Origin: a virus
Length of the DNA stretch: 64,000 nucleotides
UHGV virus genome: UHGV-2031204
Strand: one strand, 5' to 3'
The notes beneath the pieces were generated by a model. It was not told the DNA's origin and did not search any database. It was given only the letters and a program-made list of their open reading frames with translations. This document shows positions 13,394-39,189 of this stretch, in pieces (position 1 is the first letter of the stretch; each line of letters opens with the position of its first letter). Both the position numbers and the translations under genes were made by a program.

Positions 13394-13421
13394 CGGGACG
13401 TTCCTTAGATCGGAATTGATT

Positions 13422-13580: not shown

Positions 13581-13619
13581 GTATACGGATATAAATAGCG
13601 GAGGTATACGGAGTATACC
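13581..13619. promoter_or_regulatory. candidate operator: GTATACGGA direct repeat plus GGTATAC-GGA-GTATACC palindrome
   Basis: Direct repeats at 13581-13589 and 13605-13613; perfect 7-bp inverted repeat at 13603-13619; ~100 bp upstream of 13715. Confidence 0.3.
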
Positions 13620-13714
13620 GACATACTCTTCCCAGAGGAACGTAGTGACTTCCTTATACCTCTTTTACAATCCATAATAATAGCCTTCCCTTCATTGGGA
13701 TTAGCGAGTAAATC

Positions 13715-14449: not shown

Positions 14450-14478
14450 TTAAGAAAACCGAAAAAGGAGAATATACC

Positions 14479-15033: not shown

Positions 15034-15062
15034 GTAACGAAAAAACCTAAAGGAGAGTAAAA

Positions 15063-16214
15063 ATGCGAAATATTATTTCTAAACCAGGACATGTCAAAAT
15101 CCTAAAAGAACTGATGGACAGATGCTATAATCGGACTTGGTCACTACCAAGCTTAACCATCGAGTCTTCATTACAACGTGAGTTGTTTGGTTATAACTTG
15201 GGCTGTTGTGTACTTACTGAATACAATGAGATTATCGCGCCTGTCGATGTCTGTACTTACGATGAAGAAATTGAAGGTTACAAGTTCGCGGTTTACACAA
15301 ATTGTGGACTAAATTACCGTAAACTCGTTGTTAGGGAAAAGAGTAGCAGCCGGAAGATTATGTTTAAGGTCTTCCCAAGTGGTAAAGTCAGTAATTTATG
15401 TTTTCAGCTTGAGAAAGTGCCCTTTCACGGTGCGGACATTTTAACTAAACCGGAGCTCGCGTTATTAAGCGGGTTAATTGGCTTTGAAGCAAAAACCATC
15501 AAAGTTGAGCAGGAACTTACACGAAACGATTTCGGGTCAACTTGGTACGAAAGTTTCTTCCGCTACGAAATGTTAAGTGATAAAGCTATCAAACTCACTT
15601 ACCGTTCTACCGACGACATCGTTTACCACATTTTAATTAGCGGCGAACCCCACCAGATTATTGAAGTCGAAGGAGAAAAATCCGTGCGTACCTTAAAAGA
15701 TGAATTAACTGATTTTGTTAACAAAATTGATAACGTGGGTATCAGTGAATTATTATTCCCGATTCAACATCCAGAGTTGCTTGACGAGAAATGTGAAAAC
15801 ATGATTATGGCGGTGCATTTACTTCCTGACCATCTTGCTATCTACCGTACACTTTCTAAGAACCAACTTAAAGTGTGGTGTCTGTTAAAAGGTCTTTTAA
15901 CAGAGGCGGGGTGGTCGTGTAGTGTAGATGTTAACTGTGAAGGAGTTGCGTTCTTCATCACAATAGGCAATCGTAGTTTTTCTGTCGATTTACCTACTCG
16001 CAGCTATTACGATTTCTTCCCGACCGCAGAAGGACGTACTGAAAAAGAACCCGCATTACTGCTCAGTGCTGAGGAGTCCAATGCGTTAATGGCGAAACTG
16101 AAGGCGAAAGACGAGAAGCTGGATGCTTTACATCTACCTATAATCGGGAAAGACTACGGTTGGGCTGACGTGCAAAAATACGGCAGTCAGCTGTTGTTTG
16201 TTGCTGACCTCTAA
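15063..16214 (+). CDS. hypothetical protein, tandem paralog family member 3 (383 aa)
   Basis: Track ORF with AAAGGAGAG RBS; C-terminal YDFFPTAEG...SNALMAKL...YGWADVQKYGSQLLFVA. Confidence 0.65.
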   Translation: MRNIISKPGHVKILKELMDRCYNRTWSLPSLTIESSLQRELFGYNLGCCVLTEYNEIIAPVDVCTYDEEIEGYKFAVYTNCGLNYRKLVVREKSSSRKIMFKVFPSGKVSNLCFQLEKVPFHGADILTKPELALLSGLIGFEAKTIKVEQELTRNDFGSTWYESFFRYEMLSDKAIKLTYRSTDDIVYHILISGEPHQIIEVEGEKSVRTLKDELTDFVNKIDNVGISELLFPIQHPELLDEKCENMIMAVHLLPDHLAIYRTLSKNQLKVWCLLKGLLTEAGWSCSVDVNCEGVAFFITIGNRSFSVDLPTRSYYDFFPTAEGRTEKEPALLLSAEESNALMAKLKAKDEKLDALHLPIIGKDYGWADVQKYGSQLLFVADL

Positions 16215-16240
16215 TAAGTGAAAATACACTTTCTCTAACT

Positions 16241-16267
16241 GCCGCGCTTTAGTCGCGGCTTTTGTTA
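16241..16267 (+). terminator. intrinsic terminator
   Basis: Stem GCCGCG/CGCGGC then TTTTGTT. Confidence 0.5.
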
Positions 16268-16281
16268 AGAAGGAAATAGAA

Positions 16282-17055
16282 ATGAAAGTCCATTTAGACG
16301 ACATCTTTAAAACCGAACCGTATATGATCGAAGGCCCGCTATCATCACTACTATTTGCCGATAGATTAGATCGTACGCTGCAATTACAATCGGTCGAAAC
16401 TGCACCCGTTGACGATGTAGAGCGTTACGAGCGCATCAACTATACGCGTGGTGAGTATCGTCGCTATAAGCCAAATTCACTAAGCATCAAGCTTTGGAAT
16501 GTGAGCACAGGTAAAGTATTAACTTATCGCGCTGTTGGTAGTTATTACATTCAACAAGCCAAAGAGTGGTTAGAAAAAGTTAAAGAACTGAACTTCGATC
16601 TACTGAGCAAAAAACTGCGCGATCATAACGCCAGTTTGCCGATACGTAATTATTTCTCCACGATTGAAAATAGTCGTTGTTTCGTTTCACGTGAAACCAC
16701 GATATTACCTGGGGATGATGTTCAGACAACACTAAAAGATGTGGTTGTGAAGAAAATCTTTCATGAATCTGAACACGTTGGATTTCGTATCTATTTAACG
16801 CATAAGAGACCATTTACCGTGATTCACGTTGTTACCGCACCCGAAGGCTCAGCGATTATTCGTGAACTTCCTGATGCTCGAGACCGTTGCCCTAATGAGC
16901 CGCTTTATTTAATGTCAGGAACAAAATCAACCGCGTTGATGTCCCGTTACAGCATGTTAGATGTTGTTGACGCTGCTATGAAACTAGGTTGGAAAGAAGT
17001 GCAGCAACATGGTAAACAATTGCTGTTTATTGCCGATGTAAAACTTAATCAATAG
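16282..17055 (+). CDS. hypothetical protein, tandem paralog family member 4 (257 aa)
   Basis: Track ORF; C-terminal STALMSRY...KLGWKEVQQHGKQLLFIA; N-terminal MKVHLDDIF. Confidence 0.65.
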   Translation: MKVHLDDIFKTEPYMIEGPLSSLLFADRLDRTLQLQSVETAPVDDVERYERINYTRGEYRRYKPNSLSIKLWNVSTGKVLTYRAVGSYYIQQAKEWLEKVKELNFDLLSKKLRDHNASLPIRNYFSTIENSRCFVSRETTILPGDDVQTTLKDVVVKKIFHESEHVGFRIYLTHKRPFTVIHVVTAPEGSAIIRELPDARDRCPNEPLYLMSGTKSTALMSRYSMLDVVDAAMKLGWKEVQQHGKQLLFIADVKLNQ

Positions 17056-17067
17056 TGAGGTGGTACC

Positions 17068-17646
17068 GTGTACCGATTAATAGAAATGCGAAAAGACGTT
17101 TGGTTGGAAAACCTCGTCGATGGGGAGCTTGAGGGAATAGAGCTTTCCTTACCAGAAAGAGCGGACACGGTATTGGTCTTTCTGATAAAACAGGCAGCGA
17201 AGGAACCGGTAGGAATCTTCAGCGTGGACTATAAAGACCCACGAGGGATTCATTTACGGAACATTTGCAGTGGTTTAGAAAGCTTACCGGCTAATCCGTT
17301 CTTAAACTACGCAAAACGTAAACTCCAGCCAGGGCAACATCTCTGGGTAGTTCTAGCGCCTGATACACGCATTATACGTGACGACCAGACTGCGTTTGTC
17401 CAAGCAACGAAAGTCAGTTTGTACAATCCTAATGCGGATCGTACCGATATGCCGTTTACAATCACCTTAGAAGACGATGGAACGCAAGAGGGTATTGAGG
17501 CAATTACGGAATTAGTAAACTCTTATCCGGTAGCATCTATTGAGTTAGAAAACCCAAACCGATTACCGTTGGGTGATTTACTCGAATGGATTGAGCTGAA
17601 TACCGAGTTCCTCATTAACTCCCGGCAGTACCGGTTCGATGTATAA
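17068..17646 (+). CDS. hypothetical protein (192 aa)
   Basis: Track ORF, GTG start with GAGGTGG RBS; followed by strong terminator. Confidence 0.55.
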   Translation: MYRLIEMRKDVWLENLVDGELEGIELSLPERADTVLVFLIKQAAKEPVGIFSVDYKDPRGIHLRNICSGLESLPANPFLNYAKRKLQPGQHLWVVLAPDTRIIRDDQTAFVQATKVSLYNPNADRTDMPFTITLEDDGTQEGIEAITELVNSYPVASIELENPNRLPLGDLLEWIELNTEFLINSRQYRFDV

Positions 17647-17650
17647 CATC

Positions 17651-17683
17651 GGTGGGGGTAAACCCCCACCTTTTATTTTTTTG
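17651..17683 (+). terminator. intrinsic terminator
   Basis: Stem GGTGGGGG/CCCCCACC followed by TTTTATTTTTTTG. Confidence 0.7.
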
Positions 17684-17705
17684 TTCGTTAATATTAAAAA
17701 TAATT

Positions 17706-17731
17706 TCAGATATATATTACTTAAGTGAGAG
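17706..17731 (+). promoter_or_regulatory. candidate phage promoter motif (copy 2; contains TATATTAC)
   Basis: CAGATATATATTACTTAAGTGAGAG matches 13422-13447; directly after a terminator and ~45 bp upstream of 17777; overlaps hairpin TTAAGTGAG...CTCACTTAA. Confidence 0.45.
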
Positions 17732-17776
17732 TACAAAAGCACTCACTTAACGAAAACCATTTTAGGAGAACTAAAG

Positions 17777-18148
17777 ATGAAAAACGAATTATTCAAAGAC
17801 CCGTTTGTTGTATTAATGATCGTTACTCGCGCTGCCACTAACCCAGAAAACCTGAAACGTTTACTTACTAACGAAGCATACCTTATCGAACAGCGTGACG
17901 CGCAGTTAGCCAAACCACACGCTGAAGGCCAGGCGAAAGACCTTATCTCTATTTTCCGTAACGAAGAATGGCGTAAAAACAACGAGCTGTCCGACAACCT
18001 GACGGTTGCAATTGCAAAACTCTTGACACTGTTCAATCTTGACAAAGACATTAACCAAAGCCTTTCTACAGAAGAGCGTCTGGAAATGATAAGAGGTATC
18101 GGAGATAGTTATACACAGATTAAAGCATTACCCAACACAGTTATTTAA
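17777..18148 (+). CDS. hypothetical protein (123 aa)
   Basis: Track ORF with AGGAGAA RBS. Confidence 0.55.
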   Translation: MKNELFKDPFVVLMIVTRAATNPENLKRLLTNEAYLIEQRDAQLAKPHAEGQAKDLISIFRNEEWRKNNELSDNLTVAIAKLLTLFNLDKDINQSLSTEERLEMIRGIGDSYTQIKALPNTVI

Positions 18149-18194
18149 TTTCATAATTTGTGGGAACTTCCCCATAACCCGAAGGAGCATTTCA

Positions 18195-18656
18195 ATGAAA
18201 ACCTTTATCACTTTCTTAATAACTATTTTAACTTTCGGCCTCAATACTGCACACGCCGCTATCAACAGCTGGGAACAAATACAAAACCCTGGCCAGGCAG
18301 TTTACGAAATTGAAGACACCGCCGGAAACGGACTGTCTATCAACTGTGACACTGAAACTGCGAATCGCAAATTTTACGGTCGCATGGTTTGGTATTACGG
18401 GGAACCCGTAGGTGCAACTAACGCTGAAGATAACACGATGGATATTGTCGTAAACGGCAAGACCTATAACATCCCTACCGTGGACGGTAGTGACAAAGCA
18501 GAACACGCTTGGGTTGCTTTCGTTAATGCTATCGGTAATGCCAAAACTTTCAGTGTGAGTATCAATGGTAACGATGCCGCTAACTTTACCGTAGAAGGCG
18601 AACGTCTGTCTGAAACTTTCTTCCAGAACTGTGGACACACCCGTCCTAACAAATAA
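18195..18656 (+). CDS. small secreted protein 1 (153 aa, predicted signal peptide)
   Basis: AAGGAG RBS; N-terminus MKTFITFLITILTFGLNTAHA is a classic Sec signal with AxA site; mature part has 2 Cys. Confidence 0.6.
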   Translation: MKTFITFLITILTFGLNTAHAAINSWEQIQNPGQAVYEIEDTAGNGLSINCDTETANRKFYGRMVWYYGEPVGATNAEDNTMDIVVNGKTYNIPTVDGSDKAEHAWVAFVNAIGNAKTFSVSINGNDAANFTVEGERLSETFFQNCGHTRPNK

Positions 18657-18684
18657 GTATTAATCTTTTTTAGAGTGCGTGAAA

Positions 18685-19071
18685 ATGAATATCAGAACTA
18701 TACTTTATACTATCATTATTTTCTGTGCGGTCGGAATTACTGGCACTTATGCTTTCGGTGATTCAGATGTCCGTTATTACGAACCGGCTCCTGACTCACC
18801 GATTATCAACCCGGATGAGACGCCTACGTTAATGCGCAGTTTCGGTAAACTGCAAGTTTATCGTTTAGTGCGTGGTGAAACCTGTACGGGTTTACTCATT
18901 GCTGACACCCGTGCACAAGTCTACCAACGTCTAACCGATATCGCCTGCGAACAACCAAAAGTAATGTCAGTTAGTATCCATCCGCTATCAGTTGGTAACT
19001 ATACCGCTGTGGACTTCTTTCACAACGCCGAATTAATCGGACGCGTTACCTTAAATCGTCCTGCCGAATAA
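18685..19071 (+). CDS. small secreted protein 2 (~128 aa, predicted signal peptide)
   Basis: Track ORF from GTG 18679; ATG at 18685; hydrophobic N-terminus IRTILYTIIIFCAVGITGTYA; Cys in mature part. Confidence 0.5.
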   Translation: MNIRTILYTIIIFCAVGITGTYAFGDSDVRYYEPAPDSPIINPDETPTLMRSFGKLQVYRLVRGETCTGLLIADTRAQVYQRLTDIACEQPKVMSVSIHPLSVGNYTAVDFFHNAELIGRVTLNRPAE

Positions 19072-19089
19072 TCTAAAGGAGTAGTTACA

Positions 19090-19575
19090 ATGAAACGTTT
19101 ACATACACTGATGTTCTTTCTGGTTTTCTTGTTTATCGGTGCCACGCCAACTGTAGATGCGGCCTCCGTAGACGAATTGCTTACCTGCGATGGAAACGCT
19201 TGGGAAGGTCAGCCAAATGCGTGCCCAAACATCAACGACTTGTACGATACCGATAAGTCGTTTAAAGCCGTTGTTGATAAAACACTAGACCCCGTAGGGC
19301 TGGATGGTATGTTCGGCTCTAAAGGTTACATGGATGGCCCTGGCGGTAACATGTATCCGGTAAACATCAACAACAAAATCTGGATTGAAAGCGGCGGTTG
19401 TAAAGCTAACGCTTGTGGTTGGGAATACATCGTAACGCTATACAACCCACACACTAAGAAACTCGTCGGCTATTACTACAACATCGACCCCGGTTACCTG
19501 ATTTGGTTCGGTGATATCGGTGTTGCCGAATTCGCTTACCTGGTTAAGAAATACGTAGAACAATCTAAATACTAA
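19090..19575 (+). CDS. small secreted protein 3 (161 aa, Cys-rich, predicted signal peptide)
   Basis: AAGGAG RBS; MKRLHTLMFFLVFLFIGATPTVDA signal; several Cys in mature part. Confidence 0.6.
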   Translation: MKRLHTLMFFLVFLFIGATPTVDAASVDELLTCDGNAWEGQPNACPNINDLYDTDKSFKAVVDKTLDPVGLDGMFGSKGYMDGPGGNMYPVNINNKIWIESGGCKANACGWEYIVTLYNPHTKKLVGYYYNIDPGYLIWFGDIGVAEFAYLVKKYVEQSKY

Positions 19576-19586
19576 GGACTTTTATC

Positions 19587-19997
19587 ATGAAAACTATCAT
19601 TAATACTCTTCTCATTGCAATGGCTGTTCTGTTCTCTGTCAACGCTACAGCAAAAACAATACAGTTGCCAGACAATATTAAGTACGTCAATAGCACCGAT
19701 GATTTCTATTGTACGGAAATTGACGGCTTGTACTGTCAGGCAAAGAGCCTGTTTAAATACAAAGGTAGCAGATACGTATTCATCGTTGAGCAAGGTGGTG
19801 CCTGGTGCTACGACAGCCCAATGTCCGTACTCAACCTCGAAACGTGGAAGGCTCAGCGTCTCGAATACAACGACAAACGTCTGTGCTCTGGTAATAACAA
19901 ACCATTCTTCGAAGTCGTAGATGGTGTGCCAATGGTAGGGATATTAGACACTTCGGAAAAACCTATCGTTGTAGCTATGGATAAACTTAAAATTTAA
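19587..19997 (+). CDS. small secreted protein 4 (136 aa, predicted signal peptide)
   Basis: MKTIINTLLIAMAVLFSVNATA signal; Cys pairs in mature part. Confidence 0.55.
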   Translation: MKTIINTLLIAMAVLFSVNATAKTIQLPDNIKYVNSTDDFYCTEIDGLYCQAKSLFKYKGSRYVFIVEQGGAWCYDSPMSVLNLETWKAQRLEYNDKRLCSGNNKPFFEVVDGVPMVGILDTSEKPIVVAMDKLKI

Positions 19998-20007
19998 GGA
20001 GTAACTC

Positions 20008-21610: not shown

Positions 21611-21653
21611 GGGAGAACCTTCGGGTTCTCCCTTTCTTTATTTTTTTCTTTTT
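21611..21653 (+). terminator. intrinsic terminator
   Basis: Stem GGGAGAACC/GGTTCTCCC followed by long T-tract. Confidence 0.7.
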
Positions 21654-21683: not shown

Positions 21684-24188
21684 ATGCTAAAAGTTGAACG
21701 CATTATACTCAAAGGTTTTACGGGGATGGGATTACATGAAATTGAAACTTTCGATTTCACTATCCAGTCTCCAACAACAATTATCCTAGGTGGGAACGGT
21801 TGCGGGAAAACCAGTCTACTGTCTGTATTCTTACCCTTAGCACCGGCTAAAACTGAATTCAGAGACGGCGGTTCTTACACGAACTACTGTTTAGTTGGCG
21901 ATCAACGCTATCGTTTCAAAGTTGCCCGTAAAGGCAACTCTTTGGTTTGCGATATTGAGAACCTGACCACGGGGACAAAGATCGTCGAACAAGGCAATGC
22001 GAAAGTCTACAACTCCCGTGTTGAAGAAATCACGGGTATTACGAAAGAGATTAAAGAATTATTAAATGGTGAGGTGTTGTTAACTGATGCGGGAACCGAA
22101 CTACGTCGCAAGTGGTTTTACCGTTTAAGTACCTCTGACCTCACTTACGCGTTAGGGTTTTATCAACGTTTACGTAAAAACCTTACTGCCTTAAATGGGG
22201 GGATTGAAATCACCAGCCGTAAGATCGCCGAATTACGGACGCGTGTTATTGAGAACGAGGAAGAACGTCAGCAATTAGCGACGAGATTAAAAGGTTTGGA
22301 ATCGGATTTACGTGAACTGAACCGAGAAATCGAACAGTTGCCAGGATTAAATCGCGGCGTCACCATCGAAACAATCCAAGCGTCATTAAACAGCTTGGGT
22401 CCAACCATCGACGCAATATTACAACATCGTGGTGGTCTGCCTACTGATGAACAGATACAGGTCGCACGACAAAACGAGGCGACCGCCCGCGAAGCCGTCG
22501 TGTCTACTGAAACAGAGGTATCGATGTTGAATAAAGACTTGTCGCTATTGATGGATGAGTCGACACGACAAGACTACCTGATGCGGAATCACGAAGGTCT
22601 CAAGAATACACTGGCACGTTTACGTGAGTTACTTACCAAATGGGACACCGAGCATCTCTTTCCGGGTTTATTTAACGACAACGTCAATTTAGACCAACTT
22701 CGTGCGGCTACCGATGCGCGTGTCTGGGGGCAACGGTTAGGAACAACACTGGACGCAATTCATTCAACCGAAAAACTCAATGTTTTGGAAGAACGGCTTC
22801 TGGTGATGGATCAAAAAACCGCAGGGTTGCGGGATAGACTCCAGCGAGTGGAGAACGTTTTACAGAATTTAAATCACGAACGTAATCACTACTTAGAAAC
22901 AGCGGAAGTGGATTGCCCGCAGTGTCGGTTTAAGTTCCGTCCTGGTGTTACGCGTTCTTTACCTGAACTTGAGTCTTCGATTCGCGGACAACAACAGCAG
23001 CGCACGGAACTGCAAACGCAGTTAGAGACCTTATTACGCGATCGTGTTGAATTAGAATCTGATGTAACTTATATGCGGCAGGTTCGTGAGATTGTACTGA
23101 CGTATTCAAAGGACCCGGTATTGAGCATGTTCTTTAAGCGTTTGCAAGAACGTAACGTTTTCACAGAATCACGCGAGCAGTTCGGGAGTCTATGCGCAGC
23201 GTTTGACAGCGAGTTGTACTCTGCTATTGAGTACCATGAAACCCGTCAACGGTTAGTGAAGGCGGAAAAAGAATGGCAGGATGCCGTGGCGGCCGTTGGT
23301 AACGTCGATGGTGCTTTACAACAAAAAATCGCTTTCCAACAGTCACGATTAGGTAAAGCCACAGAGATGCTCTCAATGCGTCGTAGAGAGCACGAACTGG
23401 CTAACACGACACTTACCTATCTGGTGAATGTTAAACGTGCTGTAGATGATTTCAGTGCGTTATTCGAACGGTTAGAGAGTGATGTTAAGGTTACGTTGAC
23501 AAATACAGTCGTCGAGGAACTCTTACGTACACGAGAAGGGAAGCTGGATGCTTTTACAACCGCACGCGAACGTTATCGTCAAATGGAAAATGAATTGAAC
23601 CAGCTCAACAGTTTGGAACGCGAACTTGCTGACTTACAAGCCCAGCAGTTCAATAACAAACTGATGATTCAAGCCTTCTCGCCAGAAAAGGGTGTACTTA
23701 GAAAGTATTTTTACAACGCTATCGTTAGAATCACAGAGTTAATGACGCGTTATATCGAACAGGTCTGGACGTACCCCATGCGTGTTATGCCTTGTGATCT
23801 CACTGACGGCGATTTGGATTATACTTTTCCTGTCCAGCTAAAAACGCATCCTGAGCCTGTTCCTGACGTGCGTAAAGGGTCAAAGGCGCAGCGTGCGATA
23901 TTTAATCTGATGTTCAGACTGACTGCGTACAAAGCGCTGAAGTTGCATCAGTTTCCGTTGCTTTTGGACGAGCCTTCGGAGGGTATGGATGAGGAGCACC
24001 GTAACAACCTGGTCGGCTTTATTAAAACGTTAGCAAACTCAGGAGATTTTTCACAACTGTTGGTAGTCTCCCACGAAGCTGAGGTTCATTCTAAACTTAA
24101 TGAAGCATCGTACTGTGTCATCGAACCGGAAGGGGTGACATTACCTGCGGTGTATAACGAAGGAGTAAAAATTGTTTATGCAAACTGA
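21684..24188 (+). CDS. Rad50/SbcC-like ATPase (~834 aa from ATG 21684)
   Basis: N-terminal Walker A GGNGCGKTS; long coiled-coil-type middle; central CPQC zinc-hook-like motif; C-terminal Walker B LLLDEP and H-loop VVSHEA; track ORF starts at 21609 but GGAGGTGG RBS precedes ATG 21684. Confidence 0.7.
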   Translation: MLKVERIILKGFTGMGLHEIETFDFTIQSPTTIILGGNGCGKTSLLSVFLPLAPAKTEFRDGGSYTNYCLVGDQRYRFKVARKGNSLVCDIENLTTGTKIVEQGNAKVYNSRVEEITGITKEIKELLNGEVLLTDAGTELRRKWFYRLSTSDLTYALGFYQRLRKNLTALNGGIEITSRKIAELRTRVIENEEERQQLATRLKGLESDLRELNREIEQLPGLNRGVTIETIQASLNSLGPTIDAILQHRGGLPTDEQIQVARQNEATAREAVVSTETEVSMLNKDLSLLMDESTRQDYLMRNHEGLKNTLARLRELLTKWDTEHLFPGLFNDNVNLDQLRAATDARVWGQRLGTTLDAIHSTEKLNVLEERLLVMDQKTAGLRDRLQRVENVLQNLNHERNHYLETAEVDCPQCRFKFRPGVTRSLPELESSIRGQQQQRTELQTQLETLLRDRVELESDVTYMRQVREIVLTYSKDPVLSMFFKRLQERNVFTESREQFGSLCAAFDSELYSAIEYHETRQRLVKAEKEWQDAVAAVGNVDGALQQKIAFQQSRLGKATEMLSMRRREHELANTTLTYLVNVKRAVDDFSALFERLESDVKVTLTNTVVEELLRTREGKLDAFTTARERYRQMENELNQLNSLERELADLQAQQFNNKLMIQAFSPEKGVLRKYFYNAIVRITELMTRYIEQVWTYPMRVMPCDLTDGDLDYTFPVQLKTHPEPVPDVRKGSKAQRAIFNLMFRLTAYKALKLHQFPLLLDEPSEGMDEEHRNNLVGFIKTLANSGDFSQLLVVSHEAEVHSKLNEASYCVIEPEGVTLPAVYNEGVKIVYAN

Positions 24189-24357: not shown

Positions 24358-24523
24358 GAGAGGGAATATGGTTGTAGGGGTTCTGTTAACACTTGGCTCG
24401 TTGTGGTTAATTGGTAAAGGTTTAAACTGGCTGATTAAACGTCACCGTTGGGCATTCGAAGATTAACCACCCAAATAATCCAGAAGATACCCTCCGGTGT
24501 GAGGGTATTGATAGGAGCAGAAA

Positions 24524-24652
24524 ATGACCACGATAAACGCTACGAATGTAGCGATATCCGCACTATACGACGCGGAACTTTCATGGGGTGGGTTAATAAT
24601 CACCACAGCCATATTAGCCGCTGCGGCTTTCGTCATCGCGCGTTGGTTTTAA
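24524..24652 (+). CDS. small membrane peptide (42 aa)
   Basis: Not in track (<60 aa); AGGAG RBS 6 nt upstream of ATG; hand translation MTTINATNVAISALYDAELSWGGLIITTAILAAAAFVIARWF has one TM helix; the 84-aa track ORF 24448..24702 is in another frame. Confidence 0.35.
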   Translation: MTTINATNVAISALYDAELSWGGLIITTAILAAAAFVIARWF

Positions 24653-24677
24653 TTTTACTTTTTTGCGTCTCTAAGGT

Positions 24678-25127
24678 TTGCAAATGGAAATTTATTTGTT
24701 GAACGCATCTTCTAAAGTCGGCGAACGACAAGCTGCCGATTTACTCAAACTGCACTACCGTTACTTAGACCACCAGGCCACGTTACTGAAAATCAAAATG
24801 TCGGTGCCGAAGTTAAATGCGCGACAGCTGATCGAAGGTAACTGCATAGTTCTGGTGTATCAGGATGATGTCGCGGTAGGATACTGTAGTTATCGGAATC
24901 GTAACGGTTCACTTAAGATACGTTCGGTATACGTGCTCCCAGACTATCGTCAACGGGGTGTAATGAAAGAGATTTTCAAAGCAATTGCAGCTGATGAGGT
25001 TTTCGGCGAGATTGTTACTGGCATGTATGCGAAATGTAAAGAAGCAAAAGAGTATTTCATCCGACGCGGCTATCAAGCGGTTTACTCACGCGATCGTGAG
25101 TGGGTCGATTTTAGCAAAACATTCTAA
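24678..25127 (+). CDS. GNAT-family N-acetyltransferase (149 aa), putative
   Basis: Size and motif VYVLPDYRQRGVMKEIF fit the GNAT acetyl-CoA-binding motif A region. Confidence 0.5.
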   Translation: MQMEIYLLNASSKVGERQAADLLKLHYRYLDHQATLLKIKMSVPKLNARQLIEGNCIVLVYQDDVAVGYCSYRNRNGSLKIRSVYVLPDYRQRGVMKEIFKAIAADEVFGEIVTGMYAKCKEAKEYFIRRGYQAVYSRDREWVDFSKTF

Positions 25128-25193
25128 AAACAATAAAGCTCTCTTGGCGTACCTCACTATGAGTGTGAGAAATTTACGTCAGGAGAGCTAATT

Positions 25194-25439
25194 ATGTTAA
25201 AATCGTACGGAGTGGGTGGTTTGGATACGAGTATTTGTTGGAAGGAATACGAACGTGCGAAAGCGTTCTTACAGCATCCCAATGTAGGGACAATAGGTAA
25301 GGTCTGTTTCGGCAAACCTTCACTGACGGCTTGTATCCAAGGGGCTTTAGGGACGTTGCCACCCGAATCACATTTCGAGCCTGAGGAGAATATGAATGTT
25401 CACAGAGAACCCATCAATTTACGGTATACCGTTGAATGA
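25194..25439 (+). CDS. hypothetical protein (81 aa)
   Basis: Track ORF with AGGAGAG RBS; overlaps next ORF by 44 nt. Confidence 0.4.
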   Translation: MLKSYGVGGLDTSICWKEYERAKAFLQHPNVGTIGKVCFGKPSLTACIQGALGTLPPESHFEPEENMNVHREPINLRYTVE

Positions 25440-25764
25440 AATTGATATTCTACAAATTTGTTATCAGTGTGGTGACTTCGGTAAGACGCAGGTAACGCCG
25501 TTAGTTAAGCTTTTAGGTTACTTGCCTGAAATCGAGTTGCCTTTTGTTAAACCTAGCTTAGTTCGTCGTGCATCGTGTCGTGAAGCTTATTTGCTCTGGA
25601 AACACAATATTGCGGTAGAGAAGGTCTGGGATCGTATGAACGATCATCAGTTCCGTGAGCAGGTCGTACATACGCTTAACTTGGCACTGACTATGCAGCG
25701 CCTGGGCTTACAACACGAAGGTTTAGAAGCGGCGGTCAAGCAATGGATTACGAAAAATCGATAA
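25396..25764 (+). CDS. hypothetical protein (122 aa)
   Basis: Track ORF; GAGGAG RBS 7 nt upstream of ATG. Confidence 0.5.
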   Translation: MFTENPSIYGIPLNEIDILQICYQCGDFGKTQVTPLVKLLGYLPEIELPFVKPSLVRRASCREAYLLWKHNIAVEKVWDRMNDHQFREQVVHTLNLALTMQRLGLQHEGLEAAVKQWITKNR

Positions 25765-25788
25765 TGGGTAAAACATATATCGCTATAC

Positions 25789-26349
25789 TTGTCGAGCTAT
25801 CAATCGGCGGTACACGTTTTAATGCTACACATCAGCTCCGGGCGTTTCGTTATGTTAACGGTACGTAAAGAATCTGAAATTGGTAACGATCTTTTTAATG
25901 CACCCGAAGACTATAAAGTCGTTACCATTAACTGCGTAGGAGCGATGGGTCGCGGTATTGCACTCGCGTGTCGTGAACGCTACCCCAACCTTTACCAGGA
26001 TTATCGTAAGCGGTGTCGTGAAGACGAAATTAAGATTGGTAGCGTTTACGTTTACTCTGACGAAAAGTGTATCTTGCTCCCCACGAAAACCCATTGGCGC
26101 TTAAAGTCCCAGGTTTCTTATGTTACTGCGGGCATTACCGCACTAGCAGACTGTGCTGAGGATCTAGATACCAGCGTTGCTATCCCTCCACTGGGAATGG
26201 CAAATGGGTGGTTAGATTCCTGGGAAAGACAAGAAATCTTTTTGTGGCTTTACAAAAAACTTGAACCGAGGAGACAACACTACACGTTATACTTACCCGA
26301 TAGTTTGTACCGAGAAGCAGAGTCATTAATTCCAAACTCTTTTAAATAG
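25789..26349 (+). CDS. macrodomain protein, TARG1/DarG-like (start uncertain: TTG 25789, ATG 25822 or ATG 25852)
   Basis: NCVGAMGRGIALACRERY matches the C..MGAGIA motif of TARG1/DarG-type macrodomains; SVAIPPLGMANGWLDSWERQEIF matches the second conserved block (IGCGLDRLQWENV). Confidence 0.55.
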   Translation: MSSYQSAVHVLMLHISSGRFVMLTVRKESEIGNDLFNAPEDYKVVTINCVGAMGRGIALACRERYPNLYQDYRKRCREDEIKIGSVYVYSDEKCILLPTKTHWRLKSQVSYVTAGITALADCAEDLDTSVAIPPLGMANGWLDSWERQEIFLWLYKKLEPRRQHYTLYLPDSLYREAESLIPNSFK

Positions 26350-26357
26350 ATATTATC
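26348..26357 (+). promoter_or_regulatory. AGATATTATC promoter-like motif (copy 1)
   Basis: Overlaps TAG stop of upstream gene; identical 10-mer at 35838 and 44957; contains -10-like TATTAT. Confidence 0.35.
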
Positions 26358-26422
26358 ATTAGGGCACACAACAAAGGAGTATTAGCTGTCCGCGCCGTCA
26401 TTTCGTCTTACGGAATACGGAA

Positions 26423-27148
26423 ATGTATAAATCCAACTGGAGAAACAAAATGTTTCGTATCTTCTTTCTTTTACTGGTAACACTTTTCGCGTTTAACGCA
26501 CAGGCGTCAACGTCAACGCCACATTCTAAACATCAGCGTGAGTTTACACAAATCCAACATCGGTTCGAAAAAGTCAGTCCGTTAATTGTGGAAATCTCAC
26601 GAAAGCAAGGCGTTGATCCTAAGCTGATGATTACGCTGATTTATCGTGAATCGCGTTTTGATCCCAAGGCTTACAACAAAAGCTCACGAGCACACAGCCT
26701 GGTACAGATGCTTCCAAGTACCAAGCGTAATCTGCTAAGGCTTTATGGAAAAGAATTAGGTCTTAGTCAGAACGCCGATTTGTATAATCCGCGTAATGCT
26801 GTTTTGCTGGCTGCCGCGTATGTTAAACATCTTGAAAAGGGGTTAACCAAACGACTCAAACGCAAGCCCACCATGGCTGAAGTTGCGTTAGCTTACCACT
26901 GGGGTGAAAGTGGCGCTCACACGCGAATCAAAAGCAAATCTCGAGCAGCACAACGAGAAATGGCAGGCTTTATGAAAGACGCCTCGTTCTATAGCGCGAA
27001 AATCGATGTGCCTGTTGTTGTGGGCTCGGCCCCACGTCAGCTTGCGTTTGCGAAGAAAACACCACGTCAGATTCAATTGGCGGAAGTTAGTAAAATTTGG
27101 GATACGATAAACACGAGTTTTCCAATCAATAGAGGAGTTACCCTTTGA
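26423..27148 (+). CDS. secreted lytic transglycosylase, GH23/SLT domain (start 26423 or 26450)
   Basis: Signal peptide MFRIFFLLLVTLFAFNAQA; SLT motifs YRESRFDP, SLVQMLPST, AAAYVKHL. Confidence 0.7.
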   Translation: MYKSNWRNKMFRIFFLLLVTLFAFNAQASTSTPHSKHQREFTQIQHRFEKVSPLIVEISRKQGVDPKLMITLIYRESRFDPKAYNKSSRAHSLVQMLPSTKRNLLRLYGKELGLSQNADLYNPRNAVLLAAAYVKHLEKGLTKRLKRKPTMAEVALAYHWGESGAHTRIKSKSRAAQREMAGFMKDASFYSAKIDVPVVVGSAPRQLAFAKKTPRQIQLAEVSKIWDTINTSFPINRGVTL

Positions 27149-28253: not shown

Positions 28254-29189
28254 ATGACTTTTCCATCTGAAGTAATTCACGAACTGGCTAACACGCTACG
28301 TCGTTACCATAGCAGCAAGACGATGCAAACCAATGTGGGCGCGACCGCCGACTTTTTACGTGGTTATTTCCTAGGCAGAAATCCAACGTCGATTACACAG
28401 GAAACGGTTTTCTCTATCGAACGTACCTCCTTAATCCTTCCAATTGATAATTTCACTGCGTTTCAAGAAAGGAATACGTTCAACTTCTCTATGGGAATGC
28501 TGTATTCGACCATCGCCATTAATCCCATCATGAGAGATGACCCATCTTTCGTGCCTTACCAACATACAACGGATCACGGTAATTGGTTCGTTGTGGTAGA
28601 ACAAGGTGCGAATCAGTATGATGTTGTTGCGGCTCGTGACGAAGCTTTCTTTGATTTAGGACAGATTTATCGCCGTCAAGAAATTGCGTTTGACCTACGT
28701 CAAGGTAATATCGGATTAAGTGGGTCTGCTGTCTATTTCATCCTGAGCAGTTGGTCACATGTAGGTTTTGTGTTGATGAAAAAAGGACCGTTGTTCAACT
28801 CACCGTTGGTAAAATACCATAACCCTGAGGAAGGAGATCATGACGAAAAAGAAACGGTACCTGGCACAGAAGTCGCCGTTTGTGAAAACTACGATGATCT
28901 GAAATCTGTGCTCGTTAAACGTGATGTTTTCGAATCGTTAAACCTGGATTTCCCTGGTGACGAAAAAGAAATATCCGTAGCTGACCTGGTAGAAGCATTG
29001 TGTCAGAAAGACCAAGCTAATGAGATCAGTGACGAAGAAGCGGAACTCTTCCAAGTTCAACAACTCGTCAGCAAGGTTATCGGCGGCCAGGAAATCGTTG
29101 ACACCCTTATGGCTTTACCACCGAAGAAACGTACTCAAAAGTACATTCGTGAACTGGTTCTTAAAAACCTGGGTCAAGTCAAAAAGTAA
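28254..29189 (+). CDS. hypothetical protein (311 aa, acidic C-terminal region)
   Basis: Track ORF with AGAGGA RBS; terminator after stop. Confidence 0.55.
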   Translation: MTFPSEVIHELANTLRRYHSSKTMQTNVGATADFLRGYFLGRNPTSITQETVFSIERTSLILPIDNFTAFQERNTFNFSMGMLYSTIAINPIMRDDPSFVPYQHTTDHGNWFVVVEQGANQYDVVAARDEAFFDLGQIYRRQEIAFDLRQGNIGLSGSAVYFILSSWSHVGFVLMKKGPLFNSPLVKYHNPEEGDHDEKETVPGTEVAVCENYDDLKSVLVKRDVFESLNLDFPGDEKEISVADLVEALCQKDQANEISDEEAELFQVQQLVSKVIGGQEIVDTLMALPPKKRTQKYIRELVLKNLGQVKK

Positions 29190-29197
29190 TTTAAGTC

Positions 29198-29233
29198 CCC
29201 TACTCCTCCGGGAGTAGGGTTAATTCTTTCTCC
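29198..29233 (+). terminator. intrinsic terminator (CCCTACTCC family)
   Basis: Stem CCCTACTCC/GGAGTAGGG, loop TCCG, then T-rich run. Confidence 0.55.
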
Positions 29234-29250
29234 ATCTTAGGAATATTAAA

Positions 29251-29799
29251 ATGTTTCCATCGTCTGAATATTTAACTCATCTGGCTTACGGTATTCGCCG
29301 TGGTTCTGTTTTCCGCTCACGTTTAAAGGATATAAATTTCCTGGCTAATTTCTTATATAACCATTTTGGAGATGGCAATAGCGTTTACAAAAAGATCACC
29401 ACAACACAACTTTATTCCCTTATAGCAGCGTCTGAAATTGTACCTACAGATATTTGCCGATTCAAACGGTATTGCGAGGAAATTACGATCATTTTTCTTG
29501 ATCATTCTACGATTACCGTTGAAATCGTCGATCGCGTTGATATTAATAGTGAAGTATCAGGTTGGAAGATTCTGTTCGATTGTGGCAATCGTTACGCGGT
29601 ACTCGGTTCCTCTGATGAACGTGACTTCCCATTCGACAAACCCTACTACTACCTTAGCGAGGATGATTTCCCGGATAAAGAATCCAATATCTATTTAAAC
29701 GGGGATACCGTTTACTTCATTTTTCGTACTTGGAACGATGTTGCTGCTATGATTGCTCAAGGCGTCATCGATTACCGTAAACTAGAAGTCGACATTTAA
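29251..29799 (+). CDS. hypothetical protein (182 aa)
   Basis: Track ORF with AGGAATATTAAA-ATG initiation region. Confidence 0.55.
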   Translation: MFPSSEYLTHLAYGIRRGSVFRSRLKDINFLANFLYNHFGDGNSVYKKITTTQLYSLIAASEIVPTDICRFKRYCEEITIIFLDHSTITVEIVDRVDINSEVSGWKILFDCGNRYAVLGSSDERDFPFDKPYYYLSEDDFPDKESNIYLNGDTVYFIFRTWNDVAAMIAQGVIDYRKLEVDI

Positions 29800-29810
29800 A
29801 ATAAAAGCTA

Positions 29811-29845
29811 CCCTACTCCTTCGGGAGTAGGGTAATCTTTTTTAG
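29811..29845. terminator. bidirectional intrinsic terminator (CCCTACTCC family)
   Basis: Same stem as 29198 with loop TTCG; T-rich both sides; between convergent stops 29799 and 29842. Confidence 0.6.
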
Positions 29846-32919: not shown

Positions 32920-33654
32920 ATGACCTACCCAAAAATTATCACCCCGTACACACCGACGTTGGTTATTGGTGCCGATGCAGAAACCAAATCGTTACGCCCC
33001 GATGCTTATCTGTTGAGTGCAGGTTTAGTGGCTTTTGACGTTCCTACATTGAAAATGGTTGGTTCCTCATACATCCGTATCGACCCTAACGATCCTAAAG
33101 CAAAAGCTATTTTCCACGAAGACCCACAAACCGTTGGTTGGTGGGAAGGTAAAGGCGAGCCTGAATACGCACCATCTCGTGAAGCGTATGAAGAAGCCTG
33201 GGGTGGAACAACAGCATTGCCTGATGCTCTGTGGGCGATGCAAAAATGGCTCGGGGAGATTACCGCAAAACATGAGTTTGTTATTACCATGCGTGGTCCT
33301 GACTTCGATGCGCCGATTTTCATGAACGCTTTCGCACAGTGCGATATTCCGCCCGGGAAGTTCCGTAAATTTAGTGCGTTGGATAGCGATCGTACCGCAG
33401 AGCGTTTAGCCTTTGCGTTTGGTTTCGAACCTGACTTAACTGTAGAGCAAATTTACTGGACGCGCGGTAAGCCCGCGTTTGAGCACCACGCTATGTGGGA
33501 TGCAGCAAAAGAAGCCTACACTACGGCACGTATCTATCATCTCGCTTTGGTCACTCGCCAATACGGGTTTGAACGCGCCAAAGCCTGTCACGAAGAACTG
33601 AAAACTGGCGAGTATGTTGCGCCGCAGATTCGTGATCAATTAACCAGGGATTAA
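32920..33654 (+). CDS. DEDDh-type 3'-5' exonuclease (DnaQ-like), 244 aa
   Basis: Exo I motif VIGADAET near N-terminus; Exo III-type HHAMWDA near C-terminus. Confidence 0.55.
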   Translation: MTYPKIITPYTPTLVIGADAETKSLRPDAYLLSAGLVAFDVPTLKMVGSSYIRIDPNDPKAKAIFHEDPQTVGWWEGKGEPEYAPSREAYEEAWGGTTALPDALWAMQKWLGEITAKHEFVITMRGPDFDAPIFMNAFAQCDIPPGKFRKFSALDSDRTAERLAFAFGFEPDLTVEQIYWTRGKPAFEHHAMWDAAKEAYTTARIYHLALVTRQYGFERAKACHEELKTGEYVAPQIRDQLTRD

Positions 33655-33656
33655 GA

Positions 33657-35177
33657 ATGAAGAACGTTGATGTTGCAGTAATTTACACGGATGGTAGCCA
33701 TTTGACCTCCCCGCTCGGTACAGGAGCGGGGATTCATGGATACTTATTTAATCGTGAAACGATTGAGGATGGTCGGGTTTACCGCCATCCTTCTATTCCT
33801 GAGGGGATTACGACGTCAGGATACCGCCAGATAAACAAGGATGAAAAACTTCCACCTTTACCAGAAACCGTGGAATTTATCGACGGTGTTGTTCCTGTAC
33901 CAAAAATGTCACACTCTGATGTTGCAGAACTCGTGGCTTTCCTGACCGTCTTCGAACACGCCCCCTTCGTTGCTAAAAACTATGTTATCTATATCGACGC
34001 ATCTTACGTTGTCAACACGTATAACGATTGGATTGATGGTTGGGCAGCACGCGGCTGGCGTCGTGCGGACGGTACACCCATTGCGAATTTGGAATTAATC
34101 CAACGGATGTGGGAGGTTAAACAGCGGTTAAAGAAAGAAGGGAAAGGTGTTCGTGTCCTTAAAATTAAAGGTCACTCTGGACGTTATGGAAACGAGCGTG
34201 CTGACGAGTTAGCACGGAAAGGTTCAAGTATTTCGGCTCGAGGTGAGGGGCTAGACTATACACCGTATTGGTCAAAAGACGAGATGCCTGAGGAAGATCA
34301 GCAACCAGAAGTTGTTGGTGAAGGTCTCAATTTGTCCGCTTTTCCCGATATCTGTGTTACGAAGTTCTGTTACCCGATGGTGAACGAACCCCACCCCACC
34401 GTTACGGTTAACGGTAATAAACTTTATTACATGTTCGGTGGGAACCATGCAAAACAGAAGGACGATATTGTCTTCGTTGGTAAGTACATTCCAGACGCAC
34501 AATTCTGCGTAATGTTTACCAAAGAACCATGGGATAACGTATACGAGTTGGTAAATACCCACTCTGCGAAAGCGTGGGAAGGGGTGCCCCGTTTACGTCA
34601 ATTTGATCCCATCGCCGTTGTTTTTAACTTATTCGTAAAGCGTAAAAAGTTCGCAGAAGCCGCAGCTAATGGCATTCCTATCGATCGGATGCATTTTAGC
34701 GAAGACAAAAACCTGTGGATGTTTGAAGATCTTTCGATTACACGAATTCTTCGTCCTGCACTATTGTCTTATCGATGCATTACGATTCGTGATGAGCTTG
34801 CGGGTTGGTTACGCGATGCCATGGAGGGGAAAAACTCAGTAGTGATGAACGACATTACTGACATGCTTTACGATGAGAAAGGTAAGCCGAAGAAAGATTT
34901 TTATCGTAACGTAGATAAAGGTTTTGACGTAACCATCCAGATCCCTGGTAGCAAAAACAAGGTTAAAACTATCCTTACTCGAGGTATCGACATACCGACG
35001 CGTACGGAAATCAACCGTATGAAAGAACCAGAAGGGCGATTCTACGTGGCGGTACGGCGTCCAGAACGGCAGTATATCGAATATGCGTTGGTTTATATCG
35101 GGGAAAAATATCATGGGTTGTGGTGCGGCTATTATTCAAACAAACGAATACTGACGGATAAGGAGCTTGAATGCTGA
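33657..35177 (+). CDS. RNase HI-domain protein with ~300-aa C-terminal extension (506 aa)
   Basis: RNase HI catalytic motifs VAVIYTDGS, VIYIDASYV, KIKGHSGRYGNERADELA; ~50-aa insertion within the domain; unassigned C-terminal region. Confidence 0.65.
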   Translation: MKNVDVAVIYTDGSHLTSPLGTGAGIHGYLFNRETIEDGRVYRHPSIPEGITTSGYRQINKDEKLPPLPETVEFIDGVVPVPKMSHSDVAELVAFLTVFEHAPFVAKNYVIYIDASYVVNTYNDWIDGWAARGWRRADGTPIANLELIQRMWEVKQRLKKEGKGVRVLKIKGHSGRYGNERADELARKGSSISARGEGLDYTPYWSKDEMPEEDQQPEVVGEGLNLSAFPDICVTKFCYPMVNEPHPTVTVNGNKLYYMFGGNHAKQKDDIVFVGKYIPDAQFCVMFTKEPWDNVYELVNTHSAKAWEGVPRLRQFDPIAVVFNLFVKRKKFAEAAANGIPIDRMHFSEDKNLWMFEDLSITRILRPALLSYRCITIRDELAGWLRDAMEGKNSVVMNDITDMLYDEKGKPKKDFYRNVDKGFDVTIQIPGSKNKVKTILTRGIDIPTRTEINRMKEPEGRFYVAVRRPERQYIEYALVYIGEKYHGLWCGYYSNKRILTDKELEC

Positions 35178-39164: not shown

Positions 39165-39189
39165 GCTAAAAGTGTTTAGGAGTATTAAA

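Follow-up and report, generated by a model that had tools for sequence, protein, structure and literature searches.

In this paper we analysed a 64,000-nucleotide stretch of DNA from an uncultivated phage, which we call the window, and we consider it likely that its gene at 25852-26349 encodes an AdfM-type anti-DarT factor of a nucleus-forming jumbo phage. AdfM (anti-DarT factor macro) was characterised experimentally in 2025-2026, so the predicted protein would join a family that is already known. The genes around it are collected in Table 1.

Table 1. Genes of the window at and around the macrodomain gene; positions are those of the window.
Feature	Position	Strand	Basis
SMC/SbcC-like ATPase, 834 aa, heads the same-strand block upstream	21684..24188	+	phrog_77 3e-92, Pfam SMC_N
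GNAT-family acetyltransferase, 147 aa	24684..25127	+	Pfam, phrog_3810
Conserved protein of 81 aa, similar in one segment to EF-Tu (residues ~4-37)	25194..25439	+	NCBIfam, blastp, family profile
Conserved hypothetical protein, 122 aa; orthologs SPN3US gp072 and Asesino gp214	25396..25764	+	phrog_11720 1e-30
AdfM-like orphan DarG2-type macrodomain, 165 aa	25852..26349	+	profile, structure and ortholog matches
SLT-domain lytic transglycosylase, 232 aa, downstream	26450..27148	+	Pfam SLT 1e-14

The identity of the gene product as a macrodomain of the DarG/TARG1 class is confirmed by matches far beyond chance. A preliminary description of this DNA had proposed the class from two conserved blocks in an ORF at 25789-26349, and both of them, TINCVGAMGRGIA and PPLGMANGWLDSWERQ, are encoded in the + strand ORF that ends at 26349. 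The start of the gene probably needs to be moved. We prefer ATG 25852 because the homologs are 161-166 aa long and because independent gene calls on metagenome contigs with an identical macrodomain protein give 165 aa, and on the same grounds we dropped the longer 186-aa reading from TTG 25789. The second block was described as conserved in the class, which holds for its 'PPLG..NG.L' part and not for 'DSWERQ'. Pfam Macro (PF01661) matches residues 46-137 of the 186-aa reading with 26.6 bits against a gathering cut-off of 22, and phrog_335 is matched at 3e-36. Among proteins of solved structure (phmmer, PDB), the DarG macrodomains match best by a wide margin, with 2.5e-25 for that of M. tuberculosis (5m3i) and 2.8e-20 for that of T. 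aquaticus (5m31). The PADLOC DarG model is matched at 1.9e-36 over its positions 7-151 of 329, and NCBIfam antitoxin_DarG (NF048014) at 1.1e-35 over positions 7-155 of 338, with 123.6 bits against a cut-off of 250.

The fold agrees with this assignment. When the AlphaFold2 model of the macrodomain (pLDDT 93.1, pTM 0.89) is compared with solved structures by Foldseek, ranks 1-4 are taken by M. tuberculosis DarG (5m3i), T. aquaticus DarG in its apo and ADP-ribose-bound forms (5m31, 5m3e) and T. africanus DarTG (7omu), with E-values from 8e-14 to 3e-10 and a TM-score normalised to the target of 0.83-0.84 for three DarG macrodomain chains. TARG1 follows at ranks 5-7, SCO6735 is also found after DarG, and alphavirus nsP3 macrodomains are lower. 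The profile and structure comparisons that the preliminary description had suggested thus return DarG and TARG1 matches, and the catalytic Lys of the class is conserved. We predict N27 (in TINCVG) and K79 (in PTKTHW) to be the catalytic Asn/Lys pair; they align with the catalytic residues N22/K80 of T. aquaticus DarG and N23/K78 of PhiKZ AdfM (PMC13309987). Both are invariant across the window protein, its counterparts in Asesino, SPN3US and PhiKZ, and two DarGs, and among 29 aligned homologs K79 is invariant and N27 is found in at least 90%. The first ADP-ribose-binding loop reads G30-x-M-G-x-G35, of which G30, M32, G33 and G35 are invariant in our alignments, and the second reads P112-P-L-G-M-A-N-G-W120, with PPLG and G119 invariant. 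The class consensus for this second loop is P-P-L-G-x-x-N-G-G, and its last position is Gly in PhiKZ AdfM and the two DarGs, whereas the window protein has Trp120, a residue typical of the SPN3US/Asesino-related group in the homolog alignment. The same clade has its own C-terminal extension with a conserved Y147-L-P149, which bacterial DarG macrodomains do not have.

The preliminary description had also spoken of a phage copy without a DarT partner nearby, and our searches bear this out for the whole 64-kb window, where tblastn with P. aeruginosa DarT2 gave no match better than E 4.5, and for the neighbouring ORFs, in which PADLOC and Pfam scans gave no DarT match. The C-terminal DarT-binding half of DarG is absent as well, as the protein ends at 165 aa and the DarG profiles are matched only up to profile position 155. 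With a score below the 250-bit cut-off, no DarT-binding domain and no adjacent DarT, the protein is not a DarG antitoxin proper.

A megablast search of 24400-26500 against the phage collection gave no match; in its DNA sequence the phage has diverged too far, and therefore we used protein searches. These show that the window is collinear with Erwinia phage Asesino at 148-198 kb, with roughly 50-80% amino acid identity, and also with the chimallivirus Salmonella phage SPN3US. The genes for UvsX and the RNA polymerase beta subunit are among those collinear with Asesino. Asesino is a confirmed nucleus former (PMC11724907). From this collinearity the source phage appears to be a chimallivirus related to SPN3US and Asesino, whose chimallin gene would fall outside the window. 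The macrodomain shares 61.6% identity over 159 aa with Asesino gp217 (YP_009290835.1), which is found at the same genomic position and is listed as AdfM by Morgan et al. (Cell Rep 2026, PMC13309987). Its identity to PhiKZ gp104 is 40% (E 4e-30), and its ortholog in SPN3US is gp070. The order of SMC, GNAT, small ORFs, macrodomain and transglycosylase is kept in related phages. The SMC/SbcC-like ATPase is 70-76% identical to Asesino gp207 at the amino acid level (tblastx) and is also 834 aa long on metagenome contigs. The 122-aa protein matches its orthologs in SPN3US and Asesino by blastp at 1e-27 and 3e-25, and has no Pfam, NCBIfam or PADLOC match. In SPN3US, Asesino and ChrisDB the transglycosylase is likewise encoded next after the macrodomain, and in pEa_SNUABM_8 an 'endolysin' is annotated there.

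The preliminary description had proposed an anti-DarTG role, which the orthology to AdfM and the experiments published on that family now support. The chimallivirus members of the family are PhiKZ gp104, PhiPA3 gp108, Goslar gp83 and Asesino gp217 (PMC13309987). PhiKZ AdfM removes ADP-ribose from single-stranded oligonucleotides modified by DarT2, with reduced activity in the N23A mutant, and fully rescues DarT2 toxicity in E. coli; deletion of AdfM sensitises both PhiKZ and PhiPA3 to DarTG2 (PMC13309987). The GFP-tagged AdfM proteins of Asesino, PhiKZ and PhiPA3 localise to the phage nucleus, an import stated to be PicA-dependent in the case of PhiKZ gp104; for Asesino AdfM the data concern localisation only, and the enzymology is that of PhiKZ gp104 (PMC13309987). 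Only about half of the chimalliviruses are reported to carry the gene (PMC13309987), and because of this AdfM can be regarded as accessory.

By analogy with these proteins, we suggest the following mechanism. When a host DarTG2 system is triggered, DarT2 would attach ADP-ribose to thymidine within TNTC motifs of single-stranded phage DNA. The glycine-rich pocket of the phage macrodomain would bind the ADP-ribose, and the thymidine-ADP-ribose bond would be hydrolysed via the Asn27/Lys79 pair. The DNA would thus be returned to its unmodified state, replication and packaging could proceed, and the source phage would be protected. As in the orthologs, the macrodomain would probably be taken up by the phage nucleus, the site of the DNA. 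Signals for import into the phage nucleus are surface patches that are not recognisable from sequence. The GNAT encoded next door would play no part in these steps.

How far the window protein resembles known systems can be described on several levels. With the chimallivirus AdfM proteins it shares the architecture of a stand-alone DarG2-type macrodomain of ~160-166 aa and the Asn/Lys pair, but it differs from PhiKZ AdfM in Trp120 and in its C-terminal tail, and its phage is uncultivated. The DarG2 proteins of T. aquaticus and M. tuberculosis (5M31, 5M3E, 5M3I) agree with it in fold, in the catalytic Asn/Lys pair and in the greater part of the ADP-ribose-binding loops, and are 31-35% identical to it when aligned by structure (Foldseek) and 39-42% when aligned by sequence. 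Unlike them, the window protein lacks the DarT-binding domain and an adjacent DarT, and it is phage-encoded and proposed to act against a host toxin rather than as a cognate antitoxin. T4 Tk.4, which has also been named AdfM, is likewise an orphan phage macrodomain, with conditional essentiality on hosts that express DarTG2 (HIDEN-SEQ preprint, bioRxiv 10.1101/2025.11.20.689424), and the role proposed for it is the same. We tried Tk.4 as a close relative of the window protein and rejected it; because the match is no more than marginal (E 3e-4 over 43 aa) we regard it as a separate macrodomain lineage, and T4 does not form a nucleus. AdfN (T4 30.3; Johannesman et al., Nat Commun 2025, PMC11825919) is another orphan antitoxin enzymatic domain that erases DarT marks on DNA, but this anti-DarTG1 factor has a NADAR fold and acts on the guanine-ADP-ribose made by DarT1 instead of the thymidine-ADP-ribose made by DarT2. 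The statement that no phage anti-defence factor of this domain type had been characterised is therefore outdated, given PhiKZ AdfM (PMC13309987) and T4 Tk.4.

The specificity of the macrodomain is the point at which other explanations have to be considered. Human TARG1/OARD1 (4J5Q, 4J5R, 4J5S), a eukaryotic enzyme that acts mainly on protein-linked ADP-ribose, belongs to the same macrodomain class and is the next structural match after DarG, with a target TM-score of ~0.8, and the second loop of the window protein is unlike that of the tested PhiKZ AdfM and DarG. It is conceivable from this that the protein acts as a TARG1-like protein or RNA de-ADP-ribosylase, directed against other host ADP-ribosyltransferase defences, such as mRNA ADP-ribosylation by CmdT, or against phage transferases, with Trp120 and the C-terminal extension shifting its specificity. 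We think this improbable. DarG stands well above TARG1 in the Foldseek comparison (35% versus 19% identity, E 8e-14 versus 7e-8). Furthermore, no ADP-ribosyltransferase was found among the scanned neighbouring genes, and the phage macrodomain aligns closest to the DarG2 macrodomains, which are described as acting exclusively on DNA ADP-ribosylation (Morgan et al., PMC13309987). The substrate preference of the Trp120-bearing clade could still differ from that of PhiKZ AdfM and DarG.

GenBank labels of the orthologs ('Appr-1-p processing protein', 'phosphatase') and the 'phosphatase' label of phrog_335 would instead make the protein a housekeeping enzyme that removes the 1''-phosphate from the ADP-ribose-1''-phosphate of tRNA or RNA repair, and a subset of the Macro domains of jumbo phages has been proposed to work in NAD-dependent RNA repair (Iyer et al. 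2021, PMC7824862). These labels are legacy domain names and not tests, and we find such a function very unlikely. ADP-ribose-1''-phosphatase and Poa1p-like macrodomain structures (6lfq-6lfu) reach E-values of only 0.02-0.05 with the window protein, against 1e-25 for DarG (phmmer), and the invariant catalytic Lys of the DarG/TARG1 class also argues against a phosphatase. Pfam, PHROG, PADLOC and NCBIfam scans show neither an RNA ligase nor a KptA-type gene next to it, and the DNA substrate and phage-nucleus location of PhiKZ AdfM (PMC13309987) do not fit RNA repair.

Macrodomains also bind free ADP-ribose, and a signal-degrading role has been proposed generically for the Macro and NADAR domains of jumbo phages (Iyer et al. 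2021, PMC7824862), so that the target might be a soluble derivative of ADP-ribose (an immune signal or a toxic metabolite, such as the cyclic ADPR isomers of Thoeris or TIR systems) rather than DNA adducts. This is very unlikely for the window protein, which has no specific similarity to a known signal-degrading enzyme and whose nearest relatives, DarG, TARG1 and SCO6735, are all thymidine-ADP-ribose DNA hydrolases. Moreover, the AdfM orthologs accumulate in the phage nucleus, together with the DNA and apart from signalling in the cytoplasm (PMC13309987).

The preliminary description had placed a GNAT acetyltransferase two small ORFs upstream in the same unit, and its gene content was correct. 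The two ORFs of 81 and 122 aa lie between, and the GNAT scores above the Pfam cut-offs for Acetyltransf_7 (32.8 bits, cut-off 27), Acetyltransf_1 (32.8, cut-off 20.7) and Acetyltransf_10 (27.3, cut-off 23.6) and matches phrog_3810 at 1e-25. Its start is likely ATG 24684, and its homologs are 147 aa long. Motif A, with the consensus R/Q-x-x-G-x-G/A, reads R89-Q-R-G92-V-M94; R89 and M94 are invariant, whereas SPN3US and SPAsTU, both Seoulvirus phages, have Lys in place of G92. No subfamily or substrate could be assigned from the PDB and NCBIfam comparisons, in which the family profile finds generic or uncharacterised GNATs only (1q2y, 1e-6) and the sub-threshold matches are to ArsN2 and RimI. 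An AlphaFold2 model built from 7 near-identical sequences has a pLDDT of 47.4.

That the GNAT is a functional partner of the macrodomain, the two forming a counter-defence module of two enzymes on one substrate, does not follow from this arrangement. The genes are on the same strand ~0.7 kb apart, no strong intrinsic terminator was found between 21632 and 29198, and their order is the same in the phages SPN3US, SPAsTU and Asesino and in ChrisDB, Huxley, Caitlin and pEa_SNUABM_8, which are Machinavirus phages. But the O-acetyl-ADP-ribose that is deacetylated by some macrodomains is not a product of GNATs, which use acetyl-CoA, and this counts against a pairing. Homologs of the GNAT are found only in 49 phage records, all within one clade, in contrast to 264 records for the macrodomain, and the 70 Pseudomonas phages among the latter have no GNAT match. 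The GNAT is also far more diverged (34-39% identity, versus 58-66% for the macrodomain), the genes between the two vary from phage to phage, and its constant neighbour is the EF-Tu-like ORF and not the macrodomain. PhiKZ AdfM alone suffices against DarT2 (PMC13309987). A shared module is hence hardly credible, and the GNAT appears to be a clade-specific neighbour, not a demonstrated partner.

The 81-aa ORF has a strong AGGAG ribosome-binding site in front of it and comes right after the GNAT in all the related phages that we inspected. Its homologs were gathered by tblastn, as an indexed protein search gave two close relatives only. NCBIfam EF-Tu models match the protein at 3e-4, blastp to EF-Tu reaches 1e-6 with the window protein and 2e-8 with Asesino gp213, and the family profile finds only EF-Tu chains in the PDB (best 4e-7). 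The similarity covers strand beta1, the P-loop and helix 1, where H-x-NVG-x-IG-x-V is invariant in the family. In place of the expected P-loop GxxxxGK[ST], the protein has GKVCFGKP and its orthologs have GHVDHSRS or GRVAFDDT. Only ~35 residues are EF-Tu-like, in a family of 69-110 aa, and judged from its sequence the ORF is an EF-Tu-like fragment with no complete G domain and not a GTPase. A literature search on an EF-Tu-like phage protein found nothing relevant.

The GNAT and the 81-aa protein may form an undescribed module that acts on host EF-Tu or is a decoy for it, an idea that we hold to be doubtful. If some host enzyme or defence protein recognises the N-terminal region of EF-Tu, for instance, the peptide could serve as its bait or competitor; it could also be a substrate or adaptor of the GNAT. 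Less likely as a novelty of this locus is an AdfM clade in which Trp120 and the C-terminal tail bring about a substrate other than the DarT2 thymidine adduct. As a separate observation, RimI acetylates the N-terminus of EF-Tu (PMC9079301); this is a lead only, as the phage GNAT is not specifically RimI-like.

The AdfM-type gene of the window leaves existing knowledge unchanged, and the reading of the raw sequence reached the likely mechanism of the macrodomain independently. Two modest points may be useful for specialists, namely the Trp that the SPN3US/Asesino-related AdfM group carries in its second ADP-ribose-binding loop and the conserved pair of GNAT and EF-Tu-like peptide beside the AdfM gene. 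With the window, the anti-DarTG2 AdfM family would gain one likely member, encoded by an SPN3US/Asesino-like jumbo phage that is widely sampled and uncultivated.

The macrodomain protein encoded between 24.6 and 26.4 kb is a further member of AdfM (anti-DarT factor macro), a family of DarG2-like macrodomains that roughly half of the chimalliviruses encode (Morgan et al., Cell Rep 2026, PMC13309987). The tested member, PhiKZ gp104, removes ADP-ribose from an oligonucleotide modified by the toxin DarT2, an activity impaired in the N23A mutant, fully relieves the toxicity of DarT2 in E. coli and is imported into the phage nucleus (PMC13309987). PhiKZ and PhiPA3 lacking AdfM are sensitive to DarTG2, the pair of DarT2 and its macrodomain antitoxin DarG2; their DNA becomes modified and its packaging is blocked (PMC13309987). 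Asesino gp217 (YP_009290835.1) is also listed as an AdfM, and its nuclear localisation was demonstrated (PMC13309987). Our protein occupies the same genomic position as gp217 and is 61.6% identical to it over 159 residues; identity to PhiKZ gp104 is 40% (E 4e-30). Given the orthology with gp217 and the PhiKZ gp104 data, the anti-DarTG mechanism suggested in the preliminary description is correct and had already been demonstrated for the family. The accompanying remark that no characterised phage anti-defence factor of this domain type was known is superseded by PhiKZ AdfM and by T4 Tk.4. The latter, identified independently, is an orphan macrodomain, conditionally essential on DarTG2 hosts and likewise named AdfM (bioRxiv 10.1101/2025.11.20.689424), and is only marginally similar to the macrodomain described here.

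The interval holds four consecutive plus-strand genes. For the GNAT gene, whose ORF was listed from TTG 24678, we prefer the downstream ATG because the resulting length agrees with all close homologs and with independent gene calls. The macrodomain ORF is present as first described, and its translation contains both of the motifs noted then, but its start had to be corrected. The mechanical ORF opens at TTG 25789 (186 aa), whereas homologs are 161-166 aa long and start at the position of the ATG in the table; 165 aa are also called for the identical protein on metagenome contigs. Further upstream, a strong terminator-like hairpin at 21611-21632 (+) overlaps the mechanical TTG start (21609) of an SMC/SbcC-like ORF. 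Translation of this ORF most likely begins at 21684 instead, which yields 834 aa, the length given by the gene calls on metagenome contigs.

Genes of the interval, with likely starts
Feature	Coordinates	Strand	Remarks
GNAT acetyltransferase	24684-25127	+	likely start ATG 24684, 147 aa
small ORF	25194-25439	+	81 aa; strong AGGAG ribosome-binding site upstream
small ORF	25396-25764	+	122 aa
macrodomain	25852-26349	+	likely start ATG 25852, 165 aa

Sequence comparison and structure prediction together place the protein decisively in the DarG macrodomain class, in line with the DarG/TARG1 assignment made at the outset. The ORF passes Pfam Macro modestly (26.6 bits against 22). In a phmmer search of all PDB sequences the M. 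tuberculosis DarG macrodomain comes first (5m3i, 2.5e-25), followed by T. aquaticus DarG (5m31, 2.8e-20) and the T. africanus DarTG fusion (7omu, 2.4e-11). The PADLOC DarG model (1.9e-36) and the NCBIfam DarG equivalog (1.1e-35) also match, but only over the N-terminal ~150 of the ~330 positions in each profile and, for NCBIfam, with 123.6 bits under a 250-bit cut-off; the protein thus corresponds to the enzymatic part of DarG and lacks the part that binds DarT. AlphaFold2, given an alignment of 29 sequences, produced a confident model (pLDDT 93.1, pTM 0.89). The model's top Foldseek matches in the PDB are three DarG macrodomain entries (rmsd 2.0-2.3 Å) and DarTG, with E values of 8e-14 to 3e-10, and TARG1 and S. 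coelicolor SCO6735 rank next. As had been supposed, the macrodomain is an orphan: tblastn with a DarT2 detected no DarT gene across the window.

The active-site residues of T. aquaticus DarG (N22/K80) and PhiKZ AdfM (N23/K78; Morgan et al., PMC13309987) align with N27 and K79 of our protein. Among the 29 homologs K79, the G30-x-M32-G33-x-G35 loop, PPLG (112-115) and G119 are invariant and N27 is conserved at 90% or more; in an alignment with PhiKZ, Asesino, SPN3US and two DarGs all of these positions are invariant. We consider it likely that the protein acts by the AdfM mechanism. Host DarT2 would ADP-ribosylate thymidine in single-stranded phage DNA, and the macrodomain would use N27 and K79 to hydrolyse the adduct, a reaction that would probably take place in the phage nucleus and may protect the phage. 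The remaining probability is shared by three other readings. One is a shifted substrate, namely ADP-ribose on protein or RNA. The SPN3US/Asesino-related group does carry features of its own: loop 2 contains Trp120 instead of the Gly seen in PhiKZ AdfM and the two DarGs, and there is a C-terminal tail with a conserved Y-L-P. Another is action on soluble ADP-ribose signals or ADP-ribose-1''-phosphate (Iyer et al. 2021, PMC7824862), the latter being the legacy 'phosphatase' annotation; macrodomains of the ADP-ribose-1''-phosphatase type reach only E ~0.02 in the phmmer search. The last is a function coupled to the GNAT, and here the partnership implied by the preliminary description is not supported: we found GNAT homologs in 49 phage records, which all belong to the Salmonella/Erwinia/Escherichia/Proteus jumbo-phage group that includes SPN3US and Asesino, against 264 records for the macrodomain (70 of them Pseudomonas phages), the GNAT is far more diverged (34-39% against 58-66% identity), the genes separating the two vary between phages, and PhiKZ AdfM suffices alone.

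The GNAT itself is genuine by Pfam, although neither NCBIfam models nor a family profile searched against the PDB assigned a subfamily or substrate. Co-transcription with the macrodomain is compatible with the lack of a strong plus-strand terminator between 21632 and 29198, a weak argument as the phage uses its own RNA polymerases. At 28254-29834 (+) there is an apparent tandem duplication of a gene plus terminator. The ORFs 28254-29189 and 29251-29799 are paralogous (blastp 9e-11), and each is followed by a hairpin, CCCTACTCC-nnnn-GGAGTAGGG, at 29198 and 29811; the two hairpins have identical 9-bp stems, and their 4-nt loops differ at one base (0 matches expected by chance).

In all relatives inspected the 81-aa ORF follows the GNAT directly on its 3' side. 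It is found in 48 jumbo-phage records of the same Salmonella/Erwinia group in which the GNAT occurs, and its product is similar to ~35 residues at the N-terminus of EF-Tu (~4-37: strand beta1, P-loop and the beginning of helix 1). It is matched by NCBIfam EF-Tu models at 3e-4. By blastp against E. coli EF-Tu, it scores 1e-6 and Asesino gp213 2e-8, the latter sharing twelve consecutive identical residues with EF-Tu, HVNVGTIGHVDH. In the PDB nearly all matches to a profile of nine phage orthologs are EF-Tu chains (best 4e-7); the one exception listed is an eIF2 subunit (E 0.008). H-x-NVG-x-IG-x-V is invariant in the family, and the P-loop is degenerate, with GK[ST] not retained. Some orthologs are labelled 'putative elongation factor Tu', 'putative translation elongation factor' or 'putative GTPase' in GenBank; a literature search found no study of an EF-Tu-like phage protein. 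The EF-Tu N-terminus is acetylated in E. coli by RimI, a GNAT (PMC9079301), which is only a lead since the phage GNAT shows no specific resemblance to RimI.

At the protein level the window is collinear with 148-198 kb of Asesino, a chimallivirus whose nucleus formation is confirmed by experiment (PMC11724907). Common genes include large virion proteins, an SMC-like ATPase, UvsX and an RNA polymerase beta-subunit fragment. At 32920-35177 (+), the gene for an Rv2179c-like 3'-5' exoribonuclease-domain protein (244 aa) stands immediately before that for a 506-aa protein with an RNase H domain; their Asesino counterparts are gp225 ('putative endodeoxyribonuclease') and gp226 ('ribonuclease'). The ORFs 38238-39164 and 39094-40089 (+), neighbours with a slight overlap, are paralogous (25% identity over 305 aa, E 1.5e-19), the first with no Pfam match. 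The block of small same-strand ORFs at 13400-20000 (+) has no tblastx match of at least 80 bits to the otherwise collinear Asesino genome and no Pfam matches, and is probably a variable accessory region; within it, ORF 15063-16214 is weakly similar to both neighbours, 14479-15033 and 16282-17055.

The order SMC, small ORFs, GNAT, small ORFs, macrodomain, transglycosylase/endolysin is kept in the seven relatives inspected, from the genera Seoulvirus, Erskinevirus and Machinavirus. Structural genes of the window show only ~73-75% nucleotide identity to Erwinia phage Asesino, Salmonella phage SPN3US and relatives, and the phage collection holds no close DNA match across the 24.6-26.4 kb interval. 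An index of public metagenome assemblies lists the identical 165-aa macrodomain protein in 58 blocks; the contigs carrying it reach 222 kb and share the gene order (e.g. ENA ERZ27317085 k141_277099). Salmonella enterica assemblies contain relatives with ~89% identity, here on contigs of up to 226 kb. The phage is therefore uncultivated but common and widely sampled, its host is probably enterobacterial, and it should be possible to recover a near-complete genome.
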